The notes under the pieces: model-generated
The model's input: the letters and a program-made list of their open reading frames with translations, nothing else
Told to the model about the DNA's origin: nothing
Databases searched by the model: none
Source of the DNA: a virus
Virus record (IMG/VR): IMGVR_UViG_3300035671_000001
Coordinates: 1 to 64,000 of that record
Reading direction: 5' to 3' (one strand)
DNA: 64,000 nucleotides
Shown here: positions 5,171 through 43,469 of the stretch, in pieces
Layout of the letters: every line of letters begins with the position of its first letter
How positions within the stretch are numbered: position 1 is the stretch's first letter
Position numbers and translations under genes: made by a program

Positions 5171-5276
5171 TCCCTCGACCTCACGCACCCCGTCGGGACG
5201 TTAAGCGTGATTCGCAGATTTCGGCAAGAATAAAATGCGCCTTGTGCACTCGGACAATCTGGCCTACATACAGATG

Positions 5277-5352
5277 GCGAGCCTAGATCAGCGAGAGCAC
5301 CATATGCCGAGAGCGAGCCAGGAGACCTGAGAGCACCACGATCCGATAGCGC
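5277..5352 (+). ncRNA. TIGR mini-array, 2 units
   Basis: GCGAGCC-TAGATCAGC-GAGAGCACC-ATATGCCGA-GAGCGAGCC-AGGAGACCT-GAGAGCACC-ACGATCCGA. Confidence 0.85.
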
Positions 5353-6194: not shown

Positions 6195-6320
6195 GTTACC
6201 GGACGCGGGGCATTCTTCAGTCGGGCAGCGGCGGGCTCGACTTATCGAAAAATGGCCTGCGGGTCCTGCGTTCCGGTGCGTTATTTTCTCCGTTCAAGGC
6301 CATTGACCGCCGCTCTTTTC

Positions 6321-6460
6321 GAGCCACCCGCAGGGAGTGCACCAAAAGGCGAGAGCGAACCACGACAGTTGAGAGTACCAGATCATCCGAGTGAGCCACG
6401 ACACTAGAGAGCACCAGATCATTCGAGCGAGCCATAACTGAAGAGAGCACCACGACGAAG
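6321..6460 (+). ncRNA. TIGR mini-array, 4 units
   Basis: 36-nt period with alternating GAGCGAGCC and GAGAG[CT]ACC repeats and 9-nt spacers. Confidence 0.9.
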
Positions 6461-6560: not shown

Positions 6561-7559
6561 ATGCCGCGTTCAGCAGTATGGCCAACCCTACGATACGGCG
6601 ATCTAGAGCGGGTCCACTCAATTGTCGAACAGGTAACGCCGGAGATGGCCAACGCCAAGATTCCCGGCGCGCTGTTCGAACGACAGCGACCGCTGCGTAA
6701 AAGCAACATTCTCAGATTGACTAACGAGATGAGGGAGGACCGCTTCTTGCCGGGAACGCAGATCGTGTTCTGCGTCACGCCGGATAACAAGGAAAGACTG
6801 GTCAACGGGCAGCATACGCTGACGTGCATTATCGAATCCGATCGGCCGCAATGGCTCACGATCACCTACATGCGGGCCGACAATATCGAGGATGTGGCAC
6901 AAATCTACAGCGTCCTCGATACGCAAGCGGTTCGCACCGTAGGCGATGCTTGTCGCGCGCATGGAGAGGAGATCACCTCAATTCCATATTTCCGGCAGCT
7001 CGCTTCTGCTGTGGGCATCATCGAGAACAACATGGAGCAGAAGGTAAGTATCAAGGGGCCAGCCTCGCGCGCTGGCCGCATCGCGCTGATGAAAGAATAC
7101 GAGGTGGCGGCACGAATGTTCGCCGGCACGATTGAGAGCGGCGGGCATGAACCGAAAAGCCGTATTCTGCGTGCAGCCATTATGGCCGTTGCGTTGGTGA
7201 CATTTCAGTATCAACCGTCGCTTGCGGCAGAGTTTTGGTCGGGTGTTGCCGATGATGAGGGGCTGGAGCGAAGGTCACCTGAGAAGACTTTGCTCACATA
7301 CCTGCGGGATGCGGATCGAAAGAAGTACCAGCAAGCGGGCGGTTGGCTACAGCGACAGATGCGCGTGAAGGCTGCGACATTGTGCTGGAATGCCAAGTTT
7401 CGAAACGAAGAACTTGAATTCATCAAACTCAACGCTTTCAAGCGCTATCGCTTGCTGGGCACGCGCTTTCATCACGGACTCTTCGACGACGAAACCGAGA
7501 TGCCTGATCCCATCATGTCGGACGAAGACAGCGTCGCCGCTTATTCCACGGGGAGCTGA
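6561..7559 (+). CDS. ParB-like/DGQHR-like N-terminal domain protein (in-frame upstream ATG at 6462)
   Basis: RQRPL...LVNGQHTL motif; AAAGGAG RBS at 6546-6551. Confidence 0.55.
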   Translation: MPRSAVWPTLRYGDLERVHSIVEQVTPEMANAKIPGALFERQRPLRKSNILRLTNEMREDRFLPGTQIVFCVTPDNKERLVNGQHTLTCIIESDRPQWLTITYMRADNIEDVAQIYSVLDTQAVRTVGDACRAHGEEITSIPYFRQLASAVGIIENNMEQKVSIKGPASRAGRIALMKEYEVAARMFAGTIESGGHEPKSRILRAAIMAVALVTFQYQPSLAAEFWSGVADDEGLERRSPEKTLLTYLRDADRKKYQQAGGWLQRQMRVKAATLCWNAKFRNEELEFIKLNAFKRYRLLGTRFHHGLFDDETEMPDPIMSDEDSVAAYSTGS

Positions 7560-7569
7560 GAGGTGTGTG

Positions 7570-8532
7570 ATGACGGCGCAGCTCAAATTCACCAAGTGGT
7601 CGGGCGGCTCGGTGGGCCGCCCCGGCCTATACGAAGACATGAGACTTGATCACTACCATGGCCGCGATGTGTGCGACGGCGTCTCGATCAGCTCTAGCGG
7701 ACTTCGCACGATCTTTAATGAAAGCCCGGCGCATTATTGGTGCGGCAGCGTGTACAACAAGGAGCGTATCGAGGAAGAGCCGAGCCGAGAAATGGTGATT
7801 GGGCGGGCCATGCACCATCTGATGTTAGGTGAGCCGTATTTCGCTGAAATTTTCCGGCGCGCGCCCACCGAGGTGCCAGATGCCAAGGGCGTTCTCAAGC
7901 CGTGGAGCCTGCAGCTCAACTACGCCAAGGAGTGGCGAGACGCGCGCAAGCGGGAGGGCAAAGAGATTATCTTTCCGAAAGAGGTTGAGCTGATCGAGGG
8001 CATGGCGCGGGCGCTCGGTGCACACGAGATGGTGCAGGCGGGCGCTTTCGACGGCTATGTCGAGCGCTCCGGATTTTGGCGCGACAAGGAGACTGGGATA
8101 TGGCTCAAGATCAGGCCCGACGTGATCCCGTCCGATAGCGGTGACGTCTGCGATCTCAAGACCACAGCGAGTGTGCAATGGAAAGATTTGCAGCGCACCG
8201 TTGCCGAGCTGGGATACGTTCAACAATTTGCACTGATGCGAGAGGTGCTCCGAAATCTCGGATTTCCGTTTGCCAGTGCCACGTTGATCTTTGTGGAGCG
8301 CAAGCCGCCGCATTGCGTGCGTGTTGTCTCGCTGCGCTCTACCGATCTAGATCGTGGCCAGCAGATGAATCGGTATGCGCTGCGGACGTTTGTGCGCTGC
8401 TACAAGTCGAAGAAGTGGCCGGGGCCGGGCGGGACGCGCCGGGACGCCGAAGAAATTTGGCTGCCGGATTGGGCTCGTGAAAGCGTCGAGGCCAGATTGG
8501 CCTCTATGCAAGAGGATGAACAAGCCGCATAA
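7570..8532 (+). CDS. RecE/exonuclease VIII-like PD-(D/E)XK exonuclease
   Basis: YH....ISSSGLR, G.A.H..ML, K.RPD....DLKT, GY..QFA motifs. Confidence 0.85.
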   Translation: MTAQLKFTKWSGGSVGRPGLYEDMRLDHYHGRDVCDGVSISSSGLRTIFNESPAHYWCGSVYNKERIEEEPSREMVIGRAMHHLMLGEPYFAEIFRRAPTEVPDAKGVLKPWSLQLNYAKEWRDARKREGKEIIFPKEVELIEGMARALGAHEMVQAGAFDGYVERSGFWRDKETGIWLKIRPDVIPSDSGDVCDLKTTASVQWKDLQRTVAELGYVQQFALMREVLRNLGFPFASATLIFVERKPPHCVRVVSLRSTDLDRGQQMNRYALRTFVRCYKSKKWPGPGGTRRDAEEIWLPDWARESVEARLASMQEDEQAA

Positions 8533-8545
8533 TATGTTTGCGGAC

Positions 8546-8581
8546 AGCCATCTGGCATGAGTGCACCAAAATTTGGGAGCG
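8546..8581 (+). ncRNA. Solitary TIGR unit
   Basis: AGCC-ATCTGGCAT-GAGTGCACC-AAAATTTGG-GAGCG, followed by a hairpin at 8589-8618. Confidence 0.8.
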
Positions 8582-8588
8582 ACTACAG

Positions 8589-8618
8589 GCGAGCCCGGTG
8601 AAATGCCGGGCTCGCTTT
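8589..8618 (+). terminator. Intrinsic terminator-like hairpin
   Basis: GCGAGCCCGG-loop-CCGGGCTCGC-TTT. Confidence 0.55.
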
Positions 8619-8635
8619 AACCAAACGGAGAACAT

Positions 8636-8851
8636 ATGAAGAAGCCAGCAAAGCCGTCTCCCACGATGGCTCTGAGCAAGAAGGATAACGACGTGGTGAC
8701 TACCGAAGCGCGTGCACCGTTGTCGCTTGAGCATATCCGCTCGGACAGTTTGCGCGCGCGTGTTGATGCTGTGCGGACGATCTCGGAGCTGGAATCGTGG
8801 CGGGACGAGATCGAGGCAACCATCGCGTTCTTGAAGGCGCAAAAGAAATAA
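8636..8851 (+). CDS. Hypothetical protein
   Basis: GGAG RBS; fits the operon. Confidence 0.55.
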   Translation: MKKPAKPSPTMALSKKDNDVVTTEARAPLSLEHIRSDSLRARVDAVRTISELESWRDEIEATIAFLKAQKK

Positions 8852-8867
8852 GCAGCGGGGTGACGTC

Positions 8868-10145
8868 ATGGCTGACGAGCCGAGCGATATTCCTGAGGAC
8901 GTCACCGAGCCAGTGCAGCCGGAGCCGGAGCCCGCACCGAAGCCGCCGCCGTCGATGGAAGGCAACGGCAAGAGCGAAACCATCTCCGACAGTGTGCGCA
9001 GGGCGCGGGACGTTATCCCGGTTGGGGATCGCGGCGTCACTCCACAGACTTATGCCCAGTGGATCGATATCGCCAAGGACGTTTGCAAAGCGTACCTGAT
9101 GCTGCCGCAGCACCTGCACAACAACCCGCCGGTGATGGCGGGATTGTTGGAGATCGCTGCACGGTTTCAGCTCTCAGCCTATATGCTGGCCTCGCAGACC
9201 TACGTGCAGAATAACCGACTCTGTTTTCAGGCCCAGGCATTTGGCGCAATCCTTTACGCGTCCGGGCTATTGCGGGGGCGGCTGAAGTTCGAATTCTACG
9301 GCGAAGGCGAGGATATGACTTGCAGCGTCAGCGGGCGGTTCAAGGATGATCCGGACGCAATCTATAGCGCGACGACACCGCCAGTGAAGTTGATCCATCC
9401 CGGCCACACCCAGAAGGAGGGCAAAACCTTTGTTAAGGGCTCGCCACTTTGGGATCGCGATCCGGAGCAACAGCTTTCCTATTTCGCTGAGCGGCGTTGG
9501 ATCAGGCGCTATGCTCCGGATGCCTGCATGGGCATGTACACGCGGGAAGAGATTGACGAGATCGACGAATTCCGCGCCGGCCAGAAGGGGGCGATTCCGC
9601 TGACGGCCGATCGGCTCGGGCAGTTGGATACCGATGAGGGCTGGCGTGAGGGCGCTCATGTCGACATGGACTTGGCCGCCATTGCCCCGGAGCAGCCGGA
9701 GTCTCAGCCCGAGCCCGAGCCCGAGCCGCCTTCGCCGCCGCGAAAACCCCCACGCCGGCCAGCCAGGAAGACCACTGGTGGGCGCAAACCGGTGGCGAAG
9801 GCGAAGGCCACCCCAGCTCCGAAAGCCAGTCCAGGGAGGCCCGCAAAGCCCCGCCGGGGGCGGCCACCATCTCGCGCGGTGATCAAGGAAGTCGTCAAGC
9901 GGGCCGAGCTGCCGCCGCGCCGGGTGACGGCCATGCCTCCCAAGTGGCTGGACTACATCAGTGAGGCTGACGCCTGGATTGCGACCGTCACCAATGAGGA
10001 GAAGGCGGAGCTGAAGTGGGATGCCGAGCGTGAGGCCCGCGATAAACTGCAGGTGCCAATCGGGGAGCGTTCCAGATTGAGAGCCATGCTCGATCGTAAG
10101 ATAGCGCAGCTCCGTCCGAAGCCGAAGACGGAGGACGAGGCATGA
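8868..10145 (+). CDS. RecT-like single-strand annealing protein
   Basis: Follows the RecE-like gene; SPLWDRDPEQQL.Y...R.W.RRYAPD..MG.YT.EE motif. Confidence 0.75.
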   Translation: MADEPSDIPEDVTEPVQPEPEPAPKPPPSMEGNGKSETISDSVRRARDVIPVGDRGVTPQTYAQWIDIAKDVCKAYLMLPQHLHNNPPVMAGLLEIAARFQLSAYMLASQTYVQNNRLCFQAQAFGAILYASGLLRGRLKFEFYGEGEDMTCSVSGRFKDDPDAIYSATTPPVKLIHPGHTQKEGKTFVKGSPLWDRDPEQQLSYFAERRWIRRYAPDACMGMYTREEIDEIDEFRAGQKGAIPLTADRLGQLDTDEGWREGAHVDMDLAAIAPEQPESQPEPEPEPPSPPRKPPRRPARKTTGGRKPVAKAKATPAPKASPGRPAKPRRGRPPSRAVIKEVVKRAELPPRRVTAMPPKWLDYISEADAWIATVTNEEKAELKWDAEREARDKLQVPIGERSRLRAMLDRKIAQLRPKPKTEDEA

Positions 10146-12148: not shown

Positions 12149-12480
12149 GCATGGAAGAAGAATTCGAAAAGATAGTGCCAACATATCGTGCACCTGAACA
12201 ACGAAGCAACGGGCGCACTGACTTCGTGCATCTAGCTGAGCAAGTTGCACAAGCGATGATCCAATCCTGCGAGGAGCAGGTTGCTAAGGCGCAAACTACA
12301 TTGGAGCGGACCCGTAAGGATGCCGAGGAGCTTCTGGCAGCGGTCAAGAGCAAGGATCGTGAGATAGTCGACATGACGAATCGGATCGCAGCGTTAGGCG
12401 AGCAGGTACTTGAAGCAAACCGTGCCTTTCATGCTACGATAGACGCAAGCCAGGAAGATCGAGAGCACCATAAGAGTTGA
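12145..12480 (+). CDS. Coiled-coil hypothetical protein whose 3' end lies in a TIGR unit
   Basis: AAGGAG RBS; stop codon at 12478-12480 falls inside the array. Confidence 0.6.
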   Translation: MSMEEEFEKIVPTYRAPEQRSNGRTDFVHLAEQVAQAMIQSCEEQVAKAQTTLERTRKDAEELLAAVKSKDREIVDMTNRIAALGEQVLEANRAFHATIDASQEDREHHKS

Positions 12481-12809
12481 GCGAGTCATTCCCTCCGAGA
12501 GCACCAAACAAGCCGAGCGAGCCACGAGCGCTGAGTGTGCCCATACACCGGAGCGAGCCAAAGTAGAGGAGAGCACCATTTCCGAGGAGCGAGCCAAGAG
12601 CGGCTAGAGCACCACGCGAGAGGAGCGAGCCAAAAAGCAGAGAGCACCAAATAAGCTGAGCGTTAAGCCAGTGAACGGGTGAGCACCAAGTCGCGCGAGC
12701 GAGCCACGGGCTGGGAGAGCACCACCGAAACTGAGCGAGCCACTTCTACGGAGAGCACCAGACACGTTGAGCGAACCATGACTTCAGAGAGCACCCGAGA
12801 AATTGAGCG
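12445..12809 (+). ncRNA. TIGR array, 10 units
   Basis: 36-nt dual-repeat periodicity. Confidence 0.9.
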
Positions 12810-13122
12810 AGCGTTGCTTCTGTCAATCGAAGAAGATGACTGGAGTAAACGCTCGCTCACTGACGCCAGCGGCAAGGTGATTGGATTCTTCTTGCACCCG
12901 GAGGATCGCGATCTCGCAGTGAGCGCGCTCGAAGCGCAGAGCAACGTGCTCACTATGATGGACACATTCGTCGAGGCGCTATCCTACATTGCCAATCCAG
13001 ATACTGATCCGGAAGCGGCACGCGCGGTCGCTGCCAAGTGCGCTGACAATGCGAAGCGCTATGCCGACTTGTTCTGCAAGATTACGCCCGTCGAATTTAT
13101 AACAACCATAGTGCCATCATAA
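12778..13122 (+). CDS. Hypothetical protein, probably starting within the last TIGR unit
   Basis: In-frame ATG at 12778; a guide matches its DTFVE codons synonymously, supporting this frame. Confidence 0.5.
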   Translation: MTSESTREIERALLLSIEEDDWSKRSLTDASGKVIGFFLHPEDRDLAVSALEAQSNVLTMMDTFVEALSYIANPDTDPEAARAVAAKCADNAKRYADLFCKITPVEFITTIVPS

Positions 13123-15982: not shown

Positions 15983-16059
15983 GTGCGAGCCAGCGAAAAC
16001 GAGAGCACCACAGCAGGAGAGCGAGCCATCGAGGCCGACAGTACCATAAACGACGAGCG
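15983..16059 (+). ncRNA. TIGR mini-array, 2 units
   Basis: GTGCGAGCC-AGCGAAAAC-GAGAGCACC-ACAGCAGGA-GAGCGAGCC-ATCGAGGCC-GACAGTACC-ATAAACGAC-GAGCG. Confidence 0.85.
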
Positions 16060-16812: not shown

Positions 16813-17178
16813 GGCTCGCTCCTGCGCCTTGGTACTCTCTACAGCGCTGGCTCGCTCATGCAATGTGGTGCTGTCACTTCTTTTGGCTCGCTCTCAAAAC
16901 GTGGTGCTGTCTCTTGATGTGGCTCGCTCGTCCGACTTGGTGCTCTCCACCAATATGGCTCGCTCCGCCGATATGGTGCTCTCAGACTCCACGGCTCGCT
17001 CTCGACCTATGGCGCTCTCAACGGGCGTGGCTCGCTCCGGCGATCTGGTGCTCTCGCGCTGGTTGGCTCGCTCCGGATTTCTGGTGCTCACAGATCACGT
17101 GGCTCGCTCGCTAAGCGTGGTACTCTCGTCTCGTATGGCTCGCTCTCCCGGCTTGGTGCTCTCAGAGACTTTGGCTCG
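16813..17178 (-). ncRNA. TIGR array, 10 units, minus strand
   Basis: Plus strand shows GGCTCGCTC-N9-GGTGCTCTC-N9 repeated ten times. Confidence 0.9.
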
Positions 17179-17293
17179 TCAGCGCCCTCTTTACATTTGC
17201 GGCCATTATGGCCTATGGAGGGACAGCCGCCCCGGCTCGCCGCGCTAACGGACGAGCCAGGACTTGCAAAGGTGACCGTTGGAGGCGGTCGCA

Positions 17294-20617: not shown

Positions 20618-21709
20618 ATGGCAAAACGTCCTACTCATAAGAAGTGTCGGCAGTGCGGCGAATGGTTCATGCTCGGTAAGTACGAGCGCCTCACGCGGAA
20701 GTTCTGCACTTATAGCTGCGCGTCCACACATCGCAACGCGCAGCCGAAGTGGAAAAAGCGTCAGAGTAAACTGATGAAAAAGTTGGCGACGCCGGAAGTC
20801 ATGCGCGAACGCTCGCTCAAGATGTGGCGTGATCCTGCCATGCGTGCTCACCTGTCGGAGAAATCACGACAGCAGGCCAACACCAAAGAGCATCACGCCT
20901 GGATGATAGAGCACAATAAGAAACTGTGGACGGCTCCAGAGTACGCCGAATTTCGACAGCAGCACAGTGAGCGCACTCGCAAGACGGCCAAGAAACAATG
21001 GGATGATCCGGCGTTTCGCGAGAAGATTAGTGCCTTGACGACCGAGGCGAATAAGAAGCGCTGGGCCGATCCGGAATACAAAAAGCGAGTCGGCTTCAAG
21101 ATCCGTATCGCATTCGCTCAGCCGTTGTCAAAAGCAAAGCGTTCAAAGAGTTCACGCAAACAGATGATGAGACCGGAGCAGCGAACGCGGATAAGTAAGC
21201 TATCGAAAGAGCTGTGGCAGAATCCGGAGTACCGCGCCCTCGTAACCGAAAGCAGCCGAGCTGCAGCAATCAGGAATTATCGCAATCCATTTTACCGAGT
21301 AAAGAAACTTGCGGCGTTACGAAAATGGGTGCAGTCGCCAGAAGGCCGCGCACAGATGTCCGAACTCAATAAGAAACGTTGGGAGGACCCGGAATATCGT
21401 GCGCGGCAAAAAGCTCTATGGACGCCAGAAAAGAGCGCCGCGCTAAGTGAACTGAATAGAAAACGATGGGCTGATCCCAAGTTCAAAAAGCGCGTGGCAA
21501 AGAAGATTAGTAAGGCGAGACTCGAGAACACCAAGACACTCAGTGAGCAGAGCGAGCGAAGCAAAAAGCAATGGGCCGATCCAGAATTTAAGGCGCGTGT
21601 GAGTAAAAAAATCAGTAAGGGAAAGCGAGCCAAAAAAAAAAACGAGAACACCATCCAAGTTGAGCGAGCCACCAGAACTGAGAGTACCCGAAAAGGCGAG
21701 CGAGCCTAG
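20618..21709 (+). CDS. Zn-finger plus W-x-D-P-E-[YF]-R repeat (NUMOD3-like) basic nucleic-acid-binding protein
   Basis: KCRQCG...KFCTYSCA; about 10 K[KR]xWxDPE[YF][RK]-like repeats; C-terminus reads into the TIGR array. Confidence 0.65.
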   Translation: MAKRPTHKKCRQCGEWFMLGKYERLTRKFCTYSCASTHRNAQPKWKKRQSKLMKKLATPEVMRERSLKMWRDPAMRAHLSEKSRQQANTKEHHAWMIEHNKKLWTAPEYAEFRQQHSERTRKTAKKQWDDPAFREKISALTTEANKKRWADPEYKKRVGFKIRIAFAQPLSKAKRSKSSRKQMMRPEQRTRISKLSKELWQNPEYRALVTESSRAAAIRNYRNPFYRVKKLAALRKWVQSPEGRAQMSELNKKRWEDPEYRARQKALWTPEKSAALSELNRKRWADPKFKKRVAKKISKARLENTKTLSEQSERSKKQWADPEFKARVSKKISKGKRAKKKNENTIQVERATRTESTRKGERA

Positions 21710-22066
21710 CAGACGGACAGCATCATAATAGACGAGCGAGCCAAGATTAGTGAGAGCACCACGTCCGACGAGCGAGCCACGAAAGTTGAGAGCACCAAAG
21801 TGGCAGAGCGTAGCCAGAGAAAGTGAGAGCACCATTTTGAGCGAGCGAGCCATGTCCTGTGAGAGTACCAGACAAGACGAGCGTTAAGCCACTTGAAGCG
21901 AGAGTACCAAAACGAGTGAGCGAGCCAAGCGCGAAGAGAGCACCATGCAAGTTGAGCGAGCCATGTCCCATGAGAGTACCAAAAATCAGGAGCGAGCCAA
22001 GCGAGCCGAGAGCACCAATAGTCAAGAGCGAGCCATAACTACAGTGAGTACCAGAACAGGAGAGCG
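21623..22066 (+). ncRNA. TIGR array upstream of tas, about 12 units
   Basis: 36-nt dual-repeat periodicity ending 3 nt before the tas ATG. Confidence 0.9.
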
Positions 22067-22069
22067 AAA

Positions 22070-22858
22070 ATGACAGACGTTGCAGCAGTCCAAGCCTTAA
22101 CGCGTGATCTACGAAACGCCGCCGCGACAATGACGCGAGACGAAGCGCGATTCCTCGTTGATGCGTATTACATCATTCAAGACGATCGGAAGCGATCGGC
22201 CAACCAAGTGCGTTCTATGAAGGAGGAGCCACACGCCGTCCTTCAGTGGTTCTTCGATCAGAACGTCACGCTTGAAGGACAAATCAAGCGCGCCCTCGAT
22301 TCGTATTCCGACGCCAGCAAGATCGGCCTTTGGATGAAAGGAGTTTACGGAATCGGCCCGGTGATCGCGGCCGGGCTGCTCGCGCATATTGAGATCGACG
22401 ACAGCACTCCAACCGTGGGTCACATCTGGCGCTTTGCCGGACTTGATCCGACGGTGAAGTGGGAGAAGGGCCAGAAGCGGCCGTGGAATACTCAGCTCAA
22501 GACGCTGTGCTGGCACATCGGGCAGAGCTTCATGAAATTCTCAGGCCGCGACGAATGCCGCTATGGTAAGTTCTACCTTGCCCGGAAAAAGTTTGAAGTC
22601 GAGCGCAACGACTCAGGCGAGAACGCTGAGCTGGCGAAGACGCTGTTGCCGAAGTTCAACAAGAGCACCGACGCATACAAACATCTGCTCGGTGGGAAGC
22701 TGCCGCCGGCACAGATCGATGGGCGTGCACGTCGGTGGGCGGTGAAGCTTTTTCTCTCCCACATGCATGCTCAGTGGTTTAGATTGGAATTGGGCAAGGA
22801 GCCCCCCAAGCCATACGCGATTACGCAGCTCGGACATGGACACATGATTGAGCCATAG
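22070..22858 (+). CDS. tasA: TasA-like Nop-domain RNA-guided DNA-binding protein (IS110/IS116 Tnp_20-related; no RuvC or HNH domain)
   Basis: Coiled coil followed by GIGPVIAAGLL ... IWRFAGLDP ... WN..LKTLCW.IGQSF ... Y..RK ... ARRWAVKLFL; lacks a DEDD RuvC domain and the IS110 catalytic SG loop; embedded in dual-spacer arrays. Confidence 0.85.
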   Translation: MTDVAAVQALTRDLRNAAATMTRDEARFLVDAYYIIQDDRKRSANQVRSMKEEPHAVLQWFFDQNVTLEGQIKRALDSYSDASKIGLWMKGVYGIGPVIAAGLLAHIEIDDSTPTVGHIWRFAGLDPTVKWEKGQKRPWNTQLKTLCWHIGQSFMKFSGRDECRYGKFYLARKKFEVERNDSGENAELAKTLLPKFNKSTDAYKHLLGGKLPPAQIDGRARRWAVKLFLSHMHAQWFRLELGKEPPKPYAITQLGHGHMIEP

Positions 22859-24779
22859 GGTTTGAGAGCACCATCGAAGTCGAGCGAGCCACACGGACAG
22901 AGAGCACCACGATCATGGAGCGAGCCACGGACCTAGAGAGCACCACATAGGCGGAGCGAGCCAGAACACTTGAGAGCATCACGCGTGAGGAGCGAGCCAG
23001 ACGAGACGAGAGCATCATCCTCGATGAGCGAGCCACTGCGGCTGACTGTACCTATAGGAACGAGCGAGCCATTCTACACGAGAGTACCAAGCGAGCCGAG
23101 CGTTTCAGCCATGTAGAACGACAGCATCAGAGCCGAAGAGCGAGCCATGGGAGATGAGAGCACCACGTTGACAAAGCAAGCCATGATCTTTGAGAGCACC
23201 AAGCGAGCCGAGCGTTAAGCCAAGGAGCAAGAGTGCACCACATTGTGCGAGCGAGCCAGAAAACGCGAGAGTACCAAGGCTAGAGAGCGAGCCAAACCGT
23301 AAGAGAGCACCACAAAAAGCGAGCGAGCCGAGGGAGCTGAGAGTACCATATATGAGGAGCGAGCCATAAAGCGCGAGAGCACCATCCTCGACGTGCGAGC
23401 CATGCTCACTGAGAGTACCAAAATGAGCGAGCGAGCCAGAGCCCAAGAGAGCACCATCTGCTCAGAGCGTAGCCAAATGAGCAGAGTCGTACCAACATAG
23501 GAGAGCGTAGCCAAGATCGACGAGCGTACCCTGTCGGAGGAGCGAGCCAAAGACGATGAGAGCACCATGGTGAATGAGCGTAGCCACAAGACAGGACAGC
23601 ATCATGCGATTTGAGCGAGCCACTTCCCAAGAGAGTACCAAGCGAGCCGTGCGAGCCATGGGTAGCGACAGCACCATATGAAGAGAGCGAGCCACCGTTG
23701 ATGAGAGCGCCATGCCAAGCGAGCGAGCCACAGAACTTGCGAGTACCATGTCGTAGGAGCGAGCCAGCGGTAACGAGAGTACCATGGCGACGGAGCGAGT
23801 CATCGCCGCAGAGAGCACCACACGAAGTAAGCGAGCCAATGCGCGTCGAGAGTACCAAATAAGATGAGCGAGCCATGCAGGACGAGAGCACCATCACGCC
23901 AGAGCGCAGCCACAGCCACAGAGAGCACCATCGCTTAAGAGCGAGCCTTACCAGACGAGAGTACCCTACGATCAGAGCGAGCCAAGTCACAGGAGAGCAC
24001 CAAGCAAGGAGAGCGAGCCAGGGCGAGAGAGAGCACCACTACGCGCGAGCGAGCCACGGCGATTGTGAGTACCACGAAAAATGAGCGAGCCTTGTAAGAG
24101 GAGTGCACCAAATCATATGAGCGAGCCTTCGGCCGGGTGAGTACCATTGAACATGAGCGAGCCGGAAAACGCGAGAGTACCAAAAAGCGTGAGCGAACCA
24201 ATGACGAAGAGAGTACCAAAAGGAATAAGTGAGCCAGGGTGTGAGAGAGTACCAAGCGGGCCGAGCGTAGCCATCGGCAGGGAGCGTGCCATATGATCAG
24301 AGCGCTAGCCACGTATGATGAGAGCACCAAGCGCAGTGAGCGAGCCAGTAGCCAAGGGAGCACCAAGTCGGCCGAGCGTTTCAGCCATGCTGATGGAGTT
24401 GCACCACATCAGACGAGCGAGCCTTCCCGCCGGAGAGTACCAAGCAAGCTGAGTGAGCCGTGAAGTCTGAGAGCACCATATCGGCGGAGCGAGCCACGCC
24501 GAACGACAGTACCAAACCCGCCGAGCGAGCCAACGCGATCGAGAGTACCAAGCTGACCGCGCGAGCCATCGACCGCGAGAGCACCATTGCGCATGAGCGA
24601 GCCACGTCGATCGAGAGGACCAAACCACAAGAGCGAGCCAACCAGCGCGAGAGCACCAGATCGCCGGAGCGAGCCATACCGTTTGAGAGCACCACAGAAG
24701 CTGAGCGAGCCTGCGCAGTAGAGAGCACCAACGCAAGAGAGTGAGCCACCCACGATGAGAGTACCACGCCCCGTGAGCG
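22850..24779 (+). ncRNA. Main TIGR array, about 53 units
   Basis: GAGCGAGCC-N9-GAGAG[CT]ACC-N9, period 36 nt, with occasional 1-4 nt insertions in the GAGCG/AGCC repeat. Confidence 0.95.
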
Positions 24780-24849
24780 TCCTCCGAGAATAGCGGGGAG
24801 AACGTAAGCAATCGGACTCGACTCTAACGGCCGAATCGTTTTCAAAGAG

Positions 24850-31925: not shown

Positions 31926-32822
31926 ATGAATAAACCAATCAAAATCGCAACGCCGCTCTCTCGAAAGGCGGTGCTTGTCTCTGTGAATATCTCGCAGTGG
32001 ACGGCGCGAAAGTTGGATCGCAAGGTCACCGACGAAGTTAACCGCGCGCACAACGCGGCCAAGGACGCCGGGCGATACAACAAGCTCTTGATCGAGGCCG
32101 AGCACTTGGCCGAAGTCAACAAGCTGGTTTCGAGTGCCAGGAGCTTGCACTACAGCATGACGCGGCCGTGGGCGGACGAGGGTCCGCGCATTCTGCCAAA
32201 CGCGCTCTACTCGAAGTTCACTGACGCATTCCGTAACTTGAAGCGTGAGTTTCAGATTGCGGCTGATGCGTTCTGCGCCGGCTATCCGAGCTTCGTTGAA
32301 GAGCGGAAGAAATCTTTGAACGGCTTGTTCAAAGAAGCGGACTATCCGTCAGCGAACGACATCCGCAACAAGTTCAAGCTTGAATTGAACGTGTTGCCAT
32401 TGCCAGACGCAGAGGACTTCCGCACCGATCTTGATCCCGACACGCTCGCGGACATCAAACGCGAGATGAGCGAGACTTCCGGCAAGGTGCTTGACGATGC
32501 AATGAAACAAACATTCGTTGAGATCACCGAGCTGGTCGGCCACATGGCCAAGAAGTTGAACGAGCAAACGGCCAAGACCAAGCAGAAAGGCGAGCGCAAA
32601 TTCTATCTCGACTCGCTCGTCAACAACGTGCGCGACTTGGCTGACTTGTTGCCTGCCTTCAATCTGACTGACGATCCGAAGCTCACCGCTATCACCAACC
32701 GCATTGCTAAGGAGCTATGCGTGGAAGATGCGAAGGAGCTGCGGAAGAATGACGAAGCTGCCAAGACAGTCGCCAAAAGCGCTGACGAGATCGTGGCCGA
32801 GGTGGCCAAATTCCTCGGCTGA
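31926..32822 (+). CDS. DUF3150-like protein
   Basis: KAVLVSVNISQW.ARKLD ... T.PW...G.RILP ... LF...DYPS; typical partner of the AAA and vWA genes. Confidence 0.65.
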   Translation: MNKPIKIATPLSRKAVLVSVNISQWTARKLDRKVTDEVNRAHNAAKDAGRYNKLLIEAEHLAEVNKLVSSARSLHYSMTRPWADEGPRILPNALYSKFTDAFRNLKREFQIAADAFCAGYPSFVEERKKSLNGLFKEADYPSANDIRNKFKLELNVLPLPDAEDFRTDLDPDTLADIKREMSETSGKVLDDAMKQTFVEITELVGHMAKKLNEQTAKTKQKGERKFYLDSLVNNVRDLADLLPAFNLTDDPKLTAITNRIAKELCVEDAKELRKNDEAAKTVAKSADEIVAEVAKFLG

Positions 32823-32840: not shown

Positions 32841-32877
32841 GAGCCACTGCCTCGGAGAGTACCAAAGAACGAGAGCG
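32841..32877 (+). ncRNA. Solitary TIGR unit
   Basis: GAGCC-ACTGCCTCG-GAGAGTACC-AAAGAACGA-GAGCG. Confidence 0.85.
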
Positions 32878-41270: not shown

Positions 41271-43469
41271 ATGGCGATGCAGTTCAGCACATGGATGACG
41301 CGTTGGGACCCGAACGAGTACACCTTGTTCCGGCATCGCCTGCGCGGCGTGCAGTTCATCGGCCCCGACGTCATGCGGCGCTGGGACGTCACGCTGGCGA
41401 CGAACAGCATCGACCTCAACGATCCGATTATTCCTGCCTTCAAGGACGCGCTGATCAAGGAGGGCATCCTCCTGCCCGCGCGCGCGGAGTTGATCTTCGC
41501 GGCGGAGACAGGAGGCGAGCCTCCAGCCGAAGGGCAAGGGCCGCAAGGTCCGGCGGGACCGCCCGGCGCGACTGGGCCAGCGGGGCCAGCAGGGCCAGCA
41601 GGGCCAGCAGGGCCAGCGGGTCCACCGGGCAGCGGAGCTGGTGGTGGAATCGAAGAGGCGCCGATCGACGGCCAGCTCTACGGCCGCAAGGATGCGGCGT
41701 GGTCGCAGGTCACTGGAACGGGCGGACAGCCGGGGCCGGCAGGGCCTCCGGGACCGGCAGGCGCGGACGGCAAGGACGGCAAGGACGGTAAGGACGGCAA
41801 AGACGGTGCGCAGGGGCCGCAAGGTGATCAGGGTCCGCAGGGCACGCAGGGACCGGCAGGACCGGCCGGGGCCGAGGGCGTGCAGGGTCCGGCAGGTCAA
41901 GGTGGCGTGCAGGGCGTGCAGGGTGAGCCGGGACCGCAGGGATCGCCTGGGCTGAATGGTGCGCCGGGGTTGCCGGGATCACCGGGTGCGCAAGGCCCGA
42001 CGGGCGCGGACGGCGCGCCAGGAGTTGGACTGCCGGGCGCGGCAGGGCCGCAAGGTTTACAGGGACCGGCGGGCGTGGACGGTGCGCAGGGTCCGGCTGG
42101 TCCCGAGGGCGCGGTCGGCCCGCAGGGCGTCGCGGGCGGAGTTGGTCCGCAGGGAATCCAAGGACCCGGAGGCCCGCAAGGCGTGCAAGGCGAGCCGGGG
42201 TCGATCGGCCCCGCCGGCGCGCAGGGTGCGCAGGGCATGCAGGGGCCGTCCGGTGACACTGTCACGATCATCGGCAGCTTCAGTAACAAAGCGATCGCTG
42301 ATCTACCGCCGTCAGGCTACGTGCCTGCGGATTGGGATTCGCCCGGCGTGCCGCCTCTGGGCAACCAGATGGCGAACGGCCAGGGCTTGTTGCACACGCC
42401 GACGCAAACGGTTTGCTTGTGGGTTGGTCCAACGCTCACGCCCTCGGGTTGGGTCGAGCTGGGGAATGTGCAAGGTCCGATTGGGCCGACTGGTGCGGCG
42501 GGGCCAGCAGGCGCGCAAGGTCCACAAGGTGTGCAAGGTCCGCCGGGAGCTGATGCTGCGCCGGGTCCAACGGGAGCAACCGGCGCGGCTGGTCCACAAG
42601 GGCCGCAAGGTGATCCGGGTGCGCAGGGTATTCAGGGCATACCGGGATCACCGGGCGCTGCCGGAGCGCAGGGCGCGCAAGGCCCGCAAGGCATCGCTGG
42701 TCCGCAGGGCGCCAAGGGCGATCCTGGAACGCCGGGCCTGACTGGCGCGCAGGGTCCGAAGGGCGATACCGGTGCGCAGGGAACGCCGGGATCGACGGGC
42801 GCGCAGGGTCCGGCCGGAACGCAAGGCGTGCAAGGCGTGCAGGGCGTGCCGGGTCCGACTGCGGTGTCGGCGAATGCAGGCAACACCGCGACGCTCGGCA
42901 CCGACAATCTGATCTATGTGCCGACGCTGCCTCCGGCCTCTAACGCTACGCCGACGATGGACGGCACGGCGACGGTTGGTGTTGCGACGGCCTGGGCGCG
43001 CGGCGACCATGTGCATCCGAGCGACACCTCGCGCATGGCGAAGGTCGGTACGACAGCCGTTGGCAACGCGGCGGCCGGCGAGATCGGCGAGGTGCTCTCG
43101 ACCAGCGTCACCACCGGCGTCACGCTGGCCAGCGGCACGGCGGCGAACGTCGGGACGCTGAGCCTGACCCCGGGCGACTGGGACGTGAGCGCGCAGCTCG
43201 TGTTCAACCCCGGCACCAACCTCACCATCATGGCGGCGGCGATCTCGCTGACCTCGGCGACACTGCCAACAGCAGCGCAGCTCGCAGCGGGCACCGGGGC
43301 GATGCAGCAGTTGCGCGCATCGTTCGCGGCCTCGGCGGCCGAGATGCTGCAGAGCGGGTCGTGCCGCGTGAACGTCAGCACGACCACGACCGTCTACATG
43401 GTGGCGATGGTGACCGGCACGGGGACGTGGACGGGGACCGGCTTCATCAGTGCGCGCAGGCGGCGCTGA
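41271..43469 (+). CDS. Collagen-like (G-X-Y repeat) fibre protein
   Basis: Long GPAGPQG repeats; EAP.DG..YGRKD..W; ARGDHVHP. Confidence 0.85.

Follow-up and report, generated by a model that had tools for sequence, protein, structure and literature searches.

The window analysed here is a stretch of 64,000 nucleotides (nt) of soil phage DNA (positions 1 to 64,000 of IMG/VR record IMGVR_UViG_3300035671_000001) that carries a TIGR (tandem interspaced guide RNA) system, with TIGR arrays and a single tas gene, tasA. In the main array, three guide units have a spacer B that reproduces the edge repeat of the array and a spacer A whose reverse complement is similar to spacer A in the unit that follows, and in each case the edge repeat separating guide and neighbor is altered. 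This three-unit pattern was confirmed as real and far above chance. Modules of the same kind recur in a second phage lineage, in which related arrays that lack the guide have an uninterrupted junction. On balance, we favor the view that these units are TIGR guide RNAs (tigRNAs) aimed at the arrays of kin phages, each guide forming a cassette with a protected junction.

Guide units that copy the edge repeat in the tasA-linked array

The window derives from an 82.5-kb virus record with a G+C content of 58.9% and overlapping ends. A total of 93 TIGR units in seven arrays and the tas gene were identified, all within the first 25 kb. The tasA gene (22070..22858, + strand) encodes a 262-amino acid (aa) Nop-domain protein without a nuclease domain. 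When compared with PDB chains using phmmer, TasA matched TasR (9mty, residues 125-260, E 1.5e-10) and TasH (21kl/9w03, E 5.8e-7), and in both of these proteins only the Nop part is matched. A Pfam search of the protein returned no nuclease family and a weak Transposase_20 match alone. The gene product was assigned to TasA because of these Nop matches together with the lack of a nuclease domain. TasA has 5865 homologues at E<=1e-20, the closest non-self one sharing 72% identity, and a search of the GenBank phage collection with TasA gave no match.

The main array (a7; 22846..24783, + strand) lies directly after tasA and contains 53 units of 36 nt, each consisting of an edge repeat GAGCGAGCC, a 9-nt spacer A, a loop repeat GAGAG[CT]ACC and a 9-nt spacer B. 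Its first edge repeat is truncated and shares bases with the tasA stop codon. The upstream array (a6; 21623..22064, + strand, 12 units) terminates at the tasA start codon. Edge and loop repeats are alike in their box D and box C ends (GAG...CC followed by A), as in GAGCGAGCC(A) and GAGAGCACC(A), and in kin arrays with CC followed by G the change is present in both repeats. Based on the Nop relationship, the absence of a nuclease, the array layout and the covarying repeat ends, the window system is, as judged from its sequence, a dual-repeat TIGR-Tas system with TasA.

Three a7 units have AAGCGAGCC as spacer B, identical to the edge repeat except that the A trailing every repeat stands in place of the first base. 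Guide unit 1 (23062..23097, + strand) combines spacer A ATTCTACAC (23071-23079) with this spacer B (23089-23097). It is followed by resident junction 1 (23098..23119, + strand), with the edge repeat GAGCG-TTTC-AGCC (GAGCGTTTCAGCC, 23098-23110) and then spacer A ATGTAGAAC, to which the reverse complement of the guide's spacer A is identical at 7/9 positions. Guide unit 2 (23174..23209, + strand; A = ATGATCTTT, B = AAGCGAGCC at 23201-23209) shows a corresponding match of 6/9 to AAGGAGCAA, which follows the edge repeat GAGCG-TTA-AGCC in resident junction 2 (23210..23230, + strand). Guide unit 3 (23613..23648, + strand; A = ACTTCCCAA, B = AAGCGAGCC at 23640-23648) also matches its neighbor, ATGGGTAGC, at 6/9. 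The edge repeat of resident junction 3 (23649..23666, + strand), GTGCGAGCC, carries one substitution and no insertion. The spacer A of guide unit 3 is paired with an ordinary spacer B in L001/L101.

These three units had been described in the original prediction, and both the neighbor matches and the altered repeats hold. So does its remark that non-canonical repeats also stand behind ordinary units: 12 of the 93 edge repeats in the genome contain an insertion, and the majority of these come after ordinary units. A fourth unit, in array a6 (21990..22043, unit 21999-22025, + strand; A = AAGCGAGCC, B = AATAGTCAA), had been proposed as an instance of the same phenomenon. It was set apart, as a 5/9 neighbor match is no more than chance would give (P ~0.06) and a canonical edge repeat follows the unit.

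The sequence to which such a unit would be directed can be derived from the published properties of TIGR systems. Each spacer pairs with one DNA strand, nuclease-bearing relatives of TasA cut leaving 8-nt 3' overhangs, and the cut site lies 5' of the base paired to spacer position 5, the C-5 rule (PMC12045711). Each DNA strand must be paired through its 3' half, because this is the sole arrangement that gives an 8-nt 3' overhang. The 18-bp target derived here from PMC12045711 is 5'-B followed by the reverse complement of A-3', or equally A followed by the reverse complement of B on the other strand. Since B equals the edge repeat and A is inverted, the target of the three units is "edge repeat + next spacer A". 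This junction exists in the arrays, and the reverse order, spacer A followed by the edge repeat, never occurs.

The target of guide unit 1 (AAGCGAGCC+GTGTAGAAT) fits an uninterrupted junction at 15/18 positions, with mismatches at the spacer ends alone, and its resident junction at 11/18, with the spacer-B seed broken. Guide unit 2 fits at 14/18 and 10/18, respectively, and here too the seed is broken on the resident junction. For guide unit 3, the fit is 14/18 with a canonical repeat and 13/18 with the resident one. The resident insertions lie between GAGCG and AGCC, at the step from the B5-paired to the B6-paired base. This point adjoins the seed (B4-B5) and coincides with the bond at which TasR or TasH would cleave, and the insertion breaks the seed in 4/5 modules (including 23062, 23174 and, from the second lineage, L023 and L058). 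GAGCG-N(1-4)-AGCC is the regular edge repeat of other phage arrays, so the GAGCG/AGCC position tolerates extra length, and the altered resident repeats probably still work as repeats.

In the window genome, the empirical chance that the reverse complement of one spacer A matches another spacer A at 6/9 or better is 0.0115. Five of 79 adjacent pairs reach this level, and three of the five are the three guide units. A scan of viral contigs gave 114 loci with the same repeats, which were parsed and deduplicated into 202 arrays. Among 1465 adjacent pairs in these arrays, a match of at least 6/9 between the reverse complement of A and the next A was found in 4 pairs and missing in 1 where spacer B was edge-like, compared with 20 and 1440 for the remaining pairs (Fisher p 2.7e-7). 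An insertion in the next edge repeat followed 3 edge-like B spacers and was missing after 2, compared with 39 and 1725 for other spacers in the 202 arrays (p 1.2e-4). Spacers B with an exact 8-nt match to the edge repeat numbered 6 in ~2000 units, with ~0.03 expected. Neighbor-directed units make up ~0.5% of units.

Searches beyond these arrays returned chance matches. A metagenome scan for the pattern gave 119 matches, all of them chance and all outside arrays, and the bacterial and archaeal genome contigs scanned contained chance matches only and no module. A family-wide test of local near-targets gave no discrimination, as control geometries showed a similar excess from nearby duplicated units; only the edge-like subclass, along with a handful of individual cases, stands out in this comparison. 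The best in-genome targets of the three window guides reach 15/18 (the junction at 23540) and 14/18, which is the chance yield of ~93 junctions.

Recurrence and filled and empty alleles in kin arrays

In the second lineage, the module at L023:7340 (TTTGTGGAT / AAGCGAGCC) is followed by GAGCG-TT-AGCC and ATCCACAAC, with a complementarity of 8/9. The module at L058:2034 (GATCTTCTT / AAGCGAGCC) is followed by GAGCG-TC-AGCC and AAGAAGATC, with a complementarity of 9/9. At L045:3980, spacer B is loop-like (ATGAGCACC), the reverse complement of A matches the next spacer B at 7/9, and 3 changes are present in the resident loop repeat. L372:5248 is predicted to target the stretch A[7-9]+loop+B[1-6] in the unit that follows. 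L058:1960 would target a junction upstream of it, "previous B + edge repeat", across a repeat that contains an insertion. L023, L058, L045, L372, L371 and L089 are related to one another, their syntenic flanks being 73-93% identical, and the second lineage was therefore counted as one replicate. The modules within it are separate events.

Two further arrangements were observed in these arrays. At L058:1921-1997, spacer A is edge-like in one unit (AAGCTAGCC) and antisense edge-like in the unit beside it (ACTCGCTCG); the B spacers of the two are near-identical but shifted, and inserted edge repeats flank both units. This appears to be a more complex array-directed arrangement. Units ACTTGAAGC/AAAACGAGT (window 21879-21917) and ACTTGCAGC/AAAACCCAT (L023:7594-7631) are similar and each stands behind an inserted edge repeat. 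The insertion is TTA in the former and TC in the latter, and an edge-like guide lies upstream in L023 only.

Orthologous positions were compared by unit sharing between arrays. An "empty" allele, for which the original prediction had suggested looking in orthologous arrays, was found in L372/L371 relative to L023 and in L089 relative to L372. In L372 and L371, unit ATCCACAAC / ACAGAAGGC, the orthologue of L023:7376, follows an uninterrupted AAGCGAGCC edge and an ordinary unit, without a guide. At the orthologous site, L023 has 38 extra nt (AGCC-TTTGTGGAT-GAGAGCACC-AAGCGAGCC-GAGCG + TT) between AAGCG and AGCC, a difference of one 36-nt tigRNA-sized unit plus two bases. The recognition site spans this insertion point and is intact in L372/L371 and broken in L023. 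The L023 guide fits the L372/L371 junction at 17/18, the sole mismatch being at the position fixed by box C, and its own junction at 13/18. Likewise, the L372:5248 guide (ATCCTTTGC / AATGAGAGC) fits the L089 orthologue of its neighbor at 15/18 and its own neighbor at 11/18. L089 lacks this guide, and the filled/empty difference is again 36+2 nt. Both the L023 and the L372 guide match a kin virus better than the orthologous site of their carrier. The flanks of the filled/empty pairs are 80-93% identical, and the IMG sample number in the contig names is the same for L023 and L372.

An exact scan of the viral contigs for perfect targets gave one match, L381:2130 (GAGCGAGCC+AAAGATCAT), which may be due to chance (~0.3-1 expected) and was not used as evidence. 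The array at L381:2021-2750 has the same edge repeat and a different loop repeat (GAGNCACCC), and holds a 17/18 target of guide 23174. One soil sequencing run, probably the source of the phage and available as contigs only, contained no variants or alternative junctions and carries no weight either way. No RNA run contained the phage.

Proposed mechanism and competing explanations

From these relations we infer that TasA binds array junctions, that the insertion blocks this binding, and what binding does to the array that is bound. A TasA-tigRNA complex would bind the uninterrupted "edge repeat + spacer" junction under the tandem-spacer rule. The resident junction is altered by 1-4 extra bases at the length-tolerant apex of the edge repeat or by substitutions, and this alteration breaks the spacer-B seed and leaves boxes C and D in place, so that it can still function as a repeat. 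Guide and protected junction would then form a tightly linked cassette resembling a poison and its antidote. Its likely targets would be related phages in which this same unit lies behind an uninterrupted repeat and the guide is missing; there, TasA bound to the rival array would stand in the way of its transcription or replication. TasA proteins have been described as RNA-guided transcription repressors (preprint 10.64898/2026.09.09.750476), so binding within a rival array would silence the downstream guides. Because TasA has no nuclease, an attack would consist of binding, repression or fork blockage only. Recombinational repair from a co-infecting guide carrier may then convert an empty site to a filled one, a homing-like drive. 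A recombining phage population would select for tight linkage of guide and protected junction, and a homing-like drive would need such linkage as well.

Several observations weigh against array-directed targeting of kin phages. The single substitution at 23649 would give weak protection. In 2/3 of the window modules, the resident neighbor also mismatches the spacer-A seed, so that two window guides may be decaying. The L058 guide also matches the canonical junction of its own array at 15/18. The edge-repeat insertion of L045 and that of L372:5248 are not part of the predicted target, so escape does not always explain the insertion, and most inserted edge repeats come after ordinary units. The 38-nt difference between L023 and L372/L371 may be a gain or a loss. 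No kin of the window phage were found in the collections (best TasA 72% identical), and hence no empty allele is available for the three window modules. The original prediction that the guides attack the junction of a homologous unit in a rival array finds backing in the kin alleles (17/18 versus 13/18), and for the three window units themselves it has no counterpart allele. Conversion of empty sites is also disfavored by the lack of a nuclease domain in TasA, and we know of no mechanism by which it would proceed.

The same modules may instead be footprints of the birth or insertion of TIGR units, a record of array growth with no present function as a weapon. We regard this as possible though unlikely. 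In both filled/empty pairs, the alleles are set apart by exactly one unit of tigRNA size and 2 further nt (AGCC-A-loop-B-GAGCG + TT or CC) between GAGCG and AGCC, the guide without exception lies directly beside its target unit, and the insertion is present in L045 and L372:5248 even though the edge repeat is outside the predicted target. Expansion of TIGR arrays is moreover an open question (PMC12045711). On the other hand, a class that amounts to ~0.5% of units is not a general route of new spacers, and inserted edge repeats remain with the downstream unit whatever the upstream unit is (L089 versus L372). The unit ACTTG[AC]AGC has the insertion TTA in G000 and TC in L023, which looks like repeated protection. 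A reverse transcriptase was looked for in the phage and none was found, and TasA has no recombinase domain. A related proposal, that a TIGR unit of 36 nt is by itself a mobile selfish element that homes into the edge repeats of kin arrays, appears rather doubtful. A tigRNA reading "edge repeat + neighboring spacer" would here direct its own unit plus 1-4 filler bases into the center of an edge repeat. If true, this would provide the first view of TIGR array growth, by RNA-guided, nuclease-free homing or integration.

An action in cis, in which TasA weakly binds its own array and throttles downstream units, or in which pairing of the two complementary spacers in the precursor RNA, together with the enlarged edge repeat, shifts processing towards a double unit, seems improbable to us. 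The guide does lie upstream of its own site on the transcribed strand, spacer A matches the resident site at 9/9 in L058 and 8/9 in L023, and spacer A is reported to be the first to engage (preprint 10.64898/2026.08.11.744272). The RNA of the L058 module also folds better than shuffled sequences (z -2.8), but that of the window modules folds no better (z 0.2, 0.2 and 0.7). An RNA hairpin between the two spacers was therefore rejected for the three window modules, whose stems are 2-4 bp runs around a ~30-nt loop without compensatory changes. Inserted edge repeats are normal, presumably processed, repeats elsewhere, and kin alleles that lack the guide and have an intact junction are not what a role in cis would lead one to expect. 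Chance resemblance, slippage duplication of repeats or local template-switch inversion, with no guide logic involved, is a very remote prospect. Tandem repeats slip easily, a plain doubled edge repeat without clear neighbor complementarity is present in L090 and L010/L050, and the fourth unit is at chance level. Against this stand the Fisher test given above and the recurrence of modules with different spacers. Template-switch inversion was ruled out because no flanking complementarity (no inverted repeat that would promote a template switch) is present and spacer B is in direct orientation; the boundaries of the complementarity are also exactly 9 nt.

Other guides in the window and relationship to known systems

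Some other guides of the window lie near their own near-targets. A shifted-register unit (23429..23486, + strand; A = AGAGCCCAA, B = ATCTGCTCA) precedes the edge repeat GAGCG-T-AGCC, and its target, A followed by the reverse complement of B, matches the next junction at 14/18 with the register shifted by 3 nt (site 23469-23486). An edge-like unit (24227..24272, + strand) has B = AAGCGGGCC (8/9 edge-like), is followed by GAGCG-T-AGCC and lacks complementarity between its spacer A and the neighbor (1/9); it is possibly decayed or rearranged. The unit at 24374-24414, behind the second GAGCG-TTTC-AGCC, has spacers ATGCTGATGG / ACATCAGAC that are largely complementary to each other, and because of this mutual complementarity the predicted target is a direct repeat of CATCAG.

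The first full a7 unit (22882-22917; A = ACACGGACA, B = ACGATCATG) has a 15/18 near-target at 22834-22851 in the 3' end of tasA (feature 22834..22917, + strand). The two internal tasA mismatches to this guide are synonymous and leave the peptide GHGHMI unchanged, which would suit a guide directed at a different tasA allele. A solitary guide unit at 8546-8581 has a 15/18 near-target ~80 nt upstream, at 8452-8469 in a PDDEXK/DUF3799 gene (feature 8452..8581, + strand), and a solitary unit at 32842-32877 has a 13/18 near-target at 32744-32761, where the peptide KNDEA is kept. Both solitary units lie outside arrays, have full half-edge repeats, and show their near-match ~80-100 nt away in the adjacent gene. 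Control geometries for adjacent near-targets reached 13/18 at most, and the 15/18 sites in tasA and at 8452 count in favor of the kin-directed reading. Across the genome, targets outside arrays show no excess (5 at 15/18 or better versus 3-6 in controls), and general self-regulation by guides finds no support, with own-genome matches at the level of the controls.

Five more small TIGR arrays of 2-10 units lie among early genes (5275-5346, 6317-6460, 12443-12815, 15983-16054 and 16818-17181, the last on the - strand). The minus-strand array and the main array have the AACCAGCGC/AGATCGCCG unit in identical form and the GTGGAGTCT/ATATCGGCG unit in near-identical form, and the 3' end of the minus-strand array shows a hairpin and T-run terminator. 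The 3' end (21500-21709) of the open reading frame at 20618-21709 enters degenerate array units, and its stop lies just past an edge repeat (GAGCGAGCC TAG). This is either an array decaying into a gene or a gene extended into an array. The phage also encodes RecT-like and PDDEXK proteins (7390-10145). Long 9-nt periodic GGN-type runs at 41500-42850 suggest a collagen-like protein, probably a tail fiber.

TIGR-TasA systems, the targeting of kin by virus-borne arrays and the logic of homing are already known. The window system is like published dual-repeat TIGR-TasA (PMC12045711; Xu et al. 2026, 10.64898/2026.09.09.750476) in its nuclease-free, phage-borne Nop protein TasA, its 36-nt period, its alternating edge and loop repeats, its two 9-nt spacers and the tandem-spacer rule. 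In those reports, natural targets and array growth are unknown, and the split guide is suggested to avoid targeting of the own array (PMC12045711; 10.64898/2026.09.09.750476). Unlike in published TIGR-TasA, some of the window guides derive from the repeat and thereby point to a junction of an array, the resident copy of which is changed. Virus-borne mini-CRISPR arrays (Medvedeva et al. 2019, PMC6858448) carry spacers against kin viruses, and mutated orthologous loci in the carrier prevent self-targeting (PMC6858448). They resemble the present case in the mutated carrier loci and in targets near the array. They differ in that the guides here are TIGR guides used with the virus's own effector and without cleavage. 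The target would be a rival guide array at its repeat-spacer junction rather than a protein gene, and lengthening of the repeat would give the protection.

Free-standing homing endonucleases of T-even phages (SegB, PMC2330249; MobE, PMC2790892) are similar in that the element lies beside a site recognized in genomes without the element, the carrier site is immune by sequence differences, and filled and empty alleles occur in kin. In the arrays studied here, filled and empty alleles occupy the same position, and the recognition site is destroyed in the filled one. Unlike these endonucleases, recognition would rely on a 36-nt RNA unit and a shared protein, without a dedicated nuclease gene. TasA contains no nuclease domain, and the search for a partner nuclease was not exhaustive; no break is expected from TasA, and conversion is putative. 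The bridge-RNA recombinases of IS110/IS621 (PDB 8wt6) share a related Nop-like RNA-binding domain (weak sequence match), a guide RNA that reads both DNA strands and a unit-sized insertion at a defined target position. TasA (262 aa) differs from them in lacking the DEDD and serine catalytic parts, and recombination is putative.

Array-directed or self-referential tigRNAs were not found in the papers searched. Nor did these papers describe guides derived from the repeat that are aimed at array junctions and come with a protected resident repeat and with filled and empty alleles of unit size. What TIGR-Tas systems target in nature, what nuclease-free TasA does and how arrays gain units are questions stated to be open (PMC12045711). 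The modules offer a natural guide/target pair that is readable from sequence and brings its own negative control, the altered resident junction; kin phages supply filled and empty alleles. They indicate that the split-guide design does not by itself protect arrays from being targeted, and the unit-sized insertion at the center of the edge repeat is a first concrete clue to array dynamics. Phages appear to direct guides at one another's guide arrays, and the pattern looks like warfare or gene drive between these arrays.

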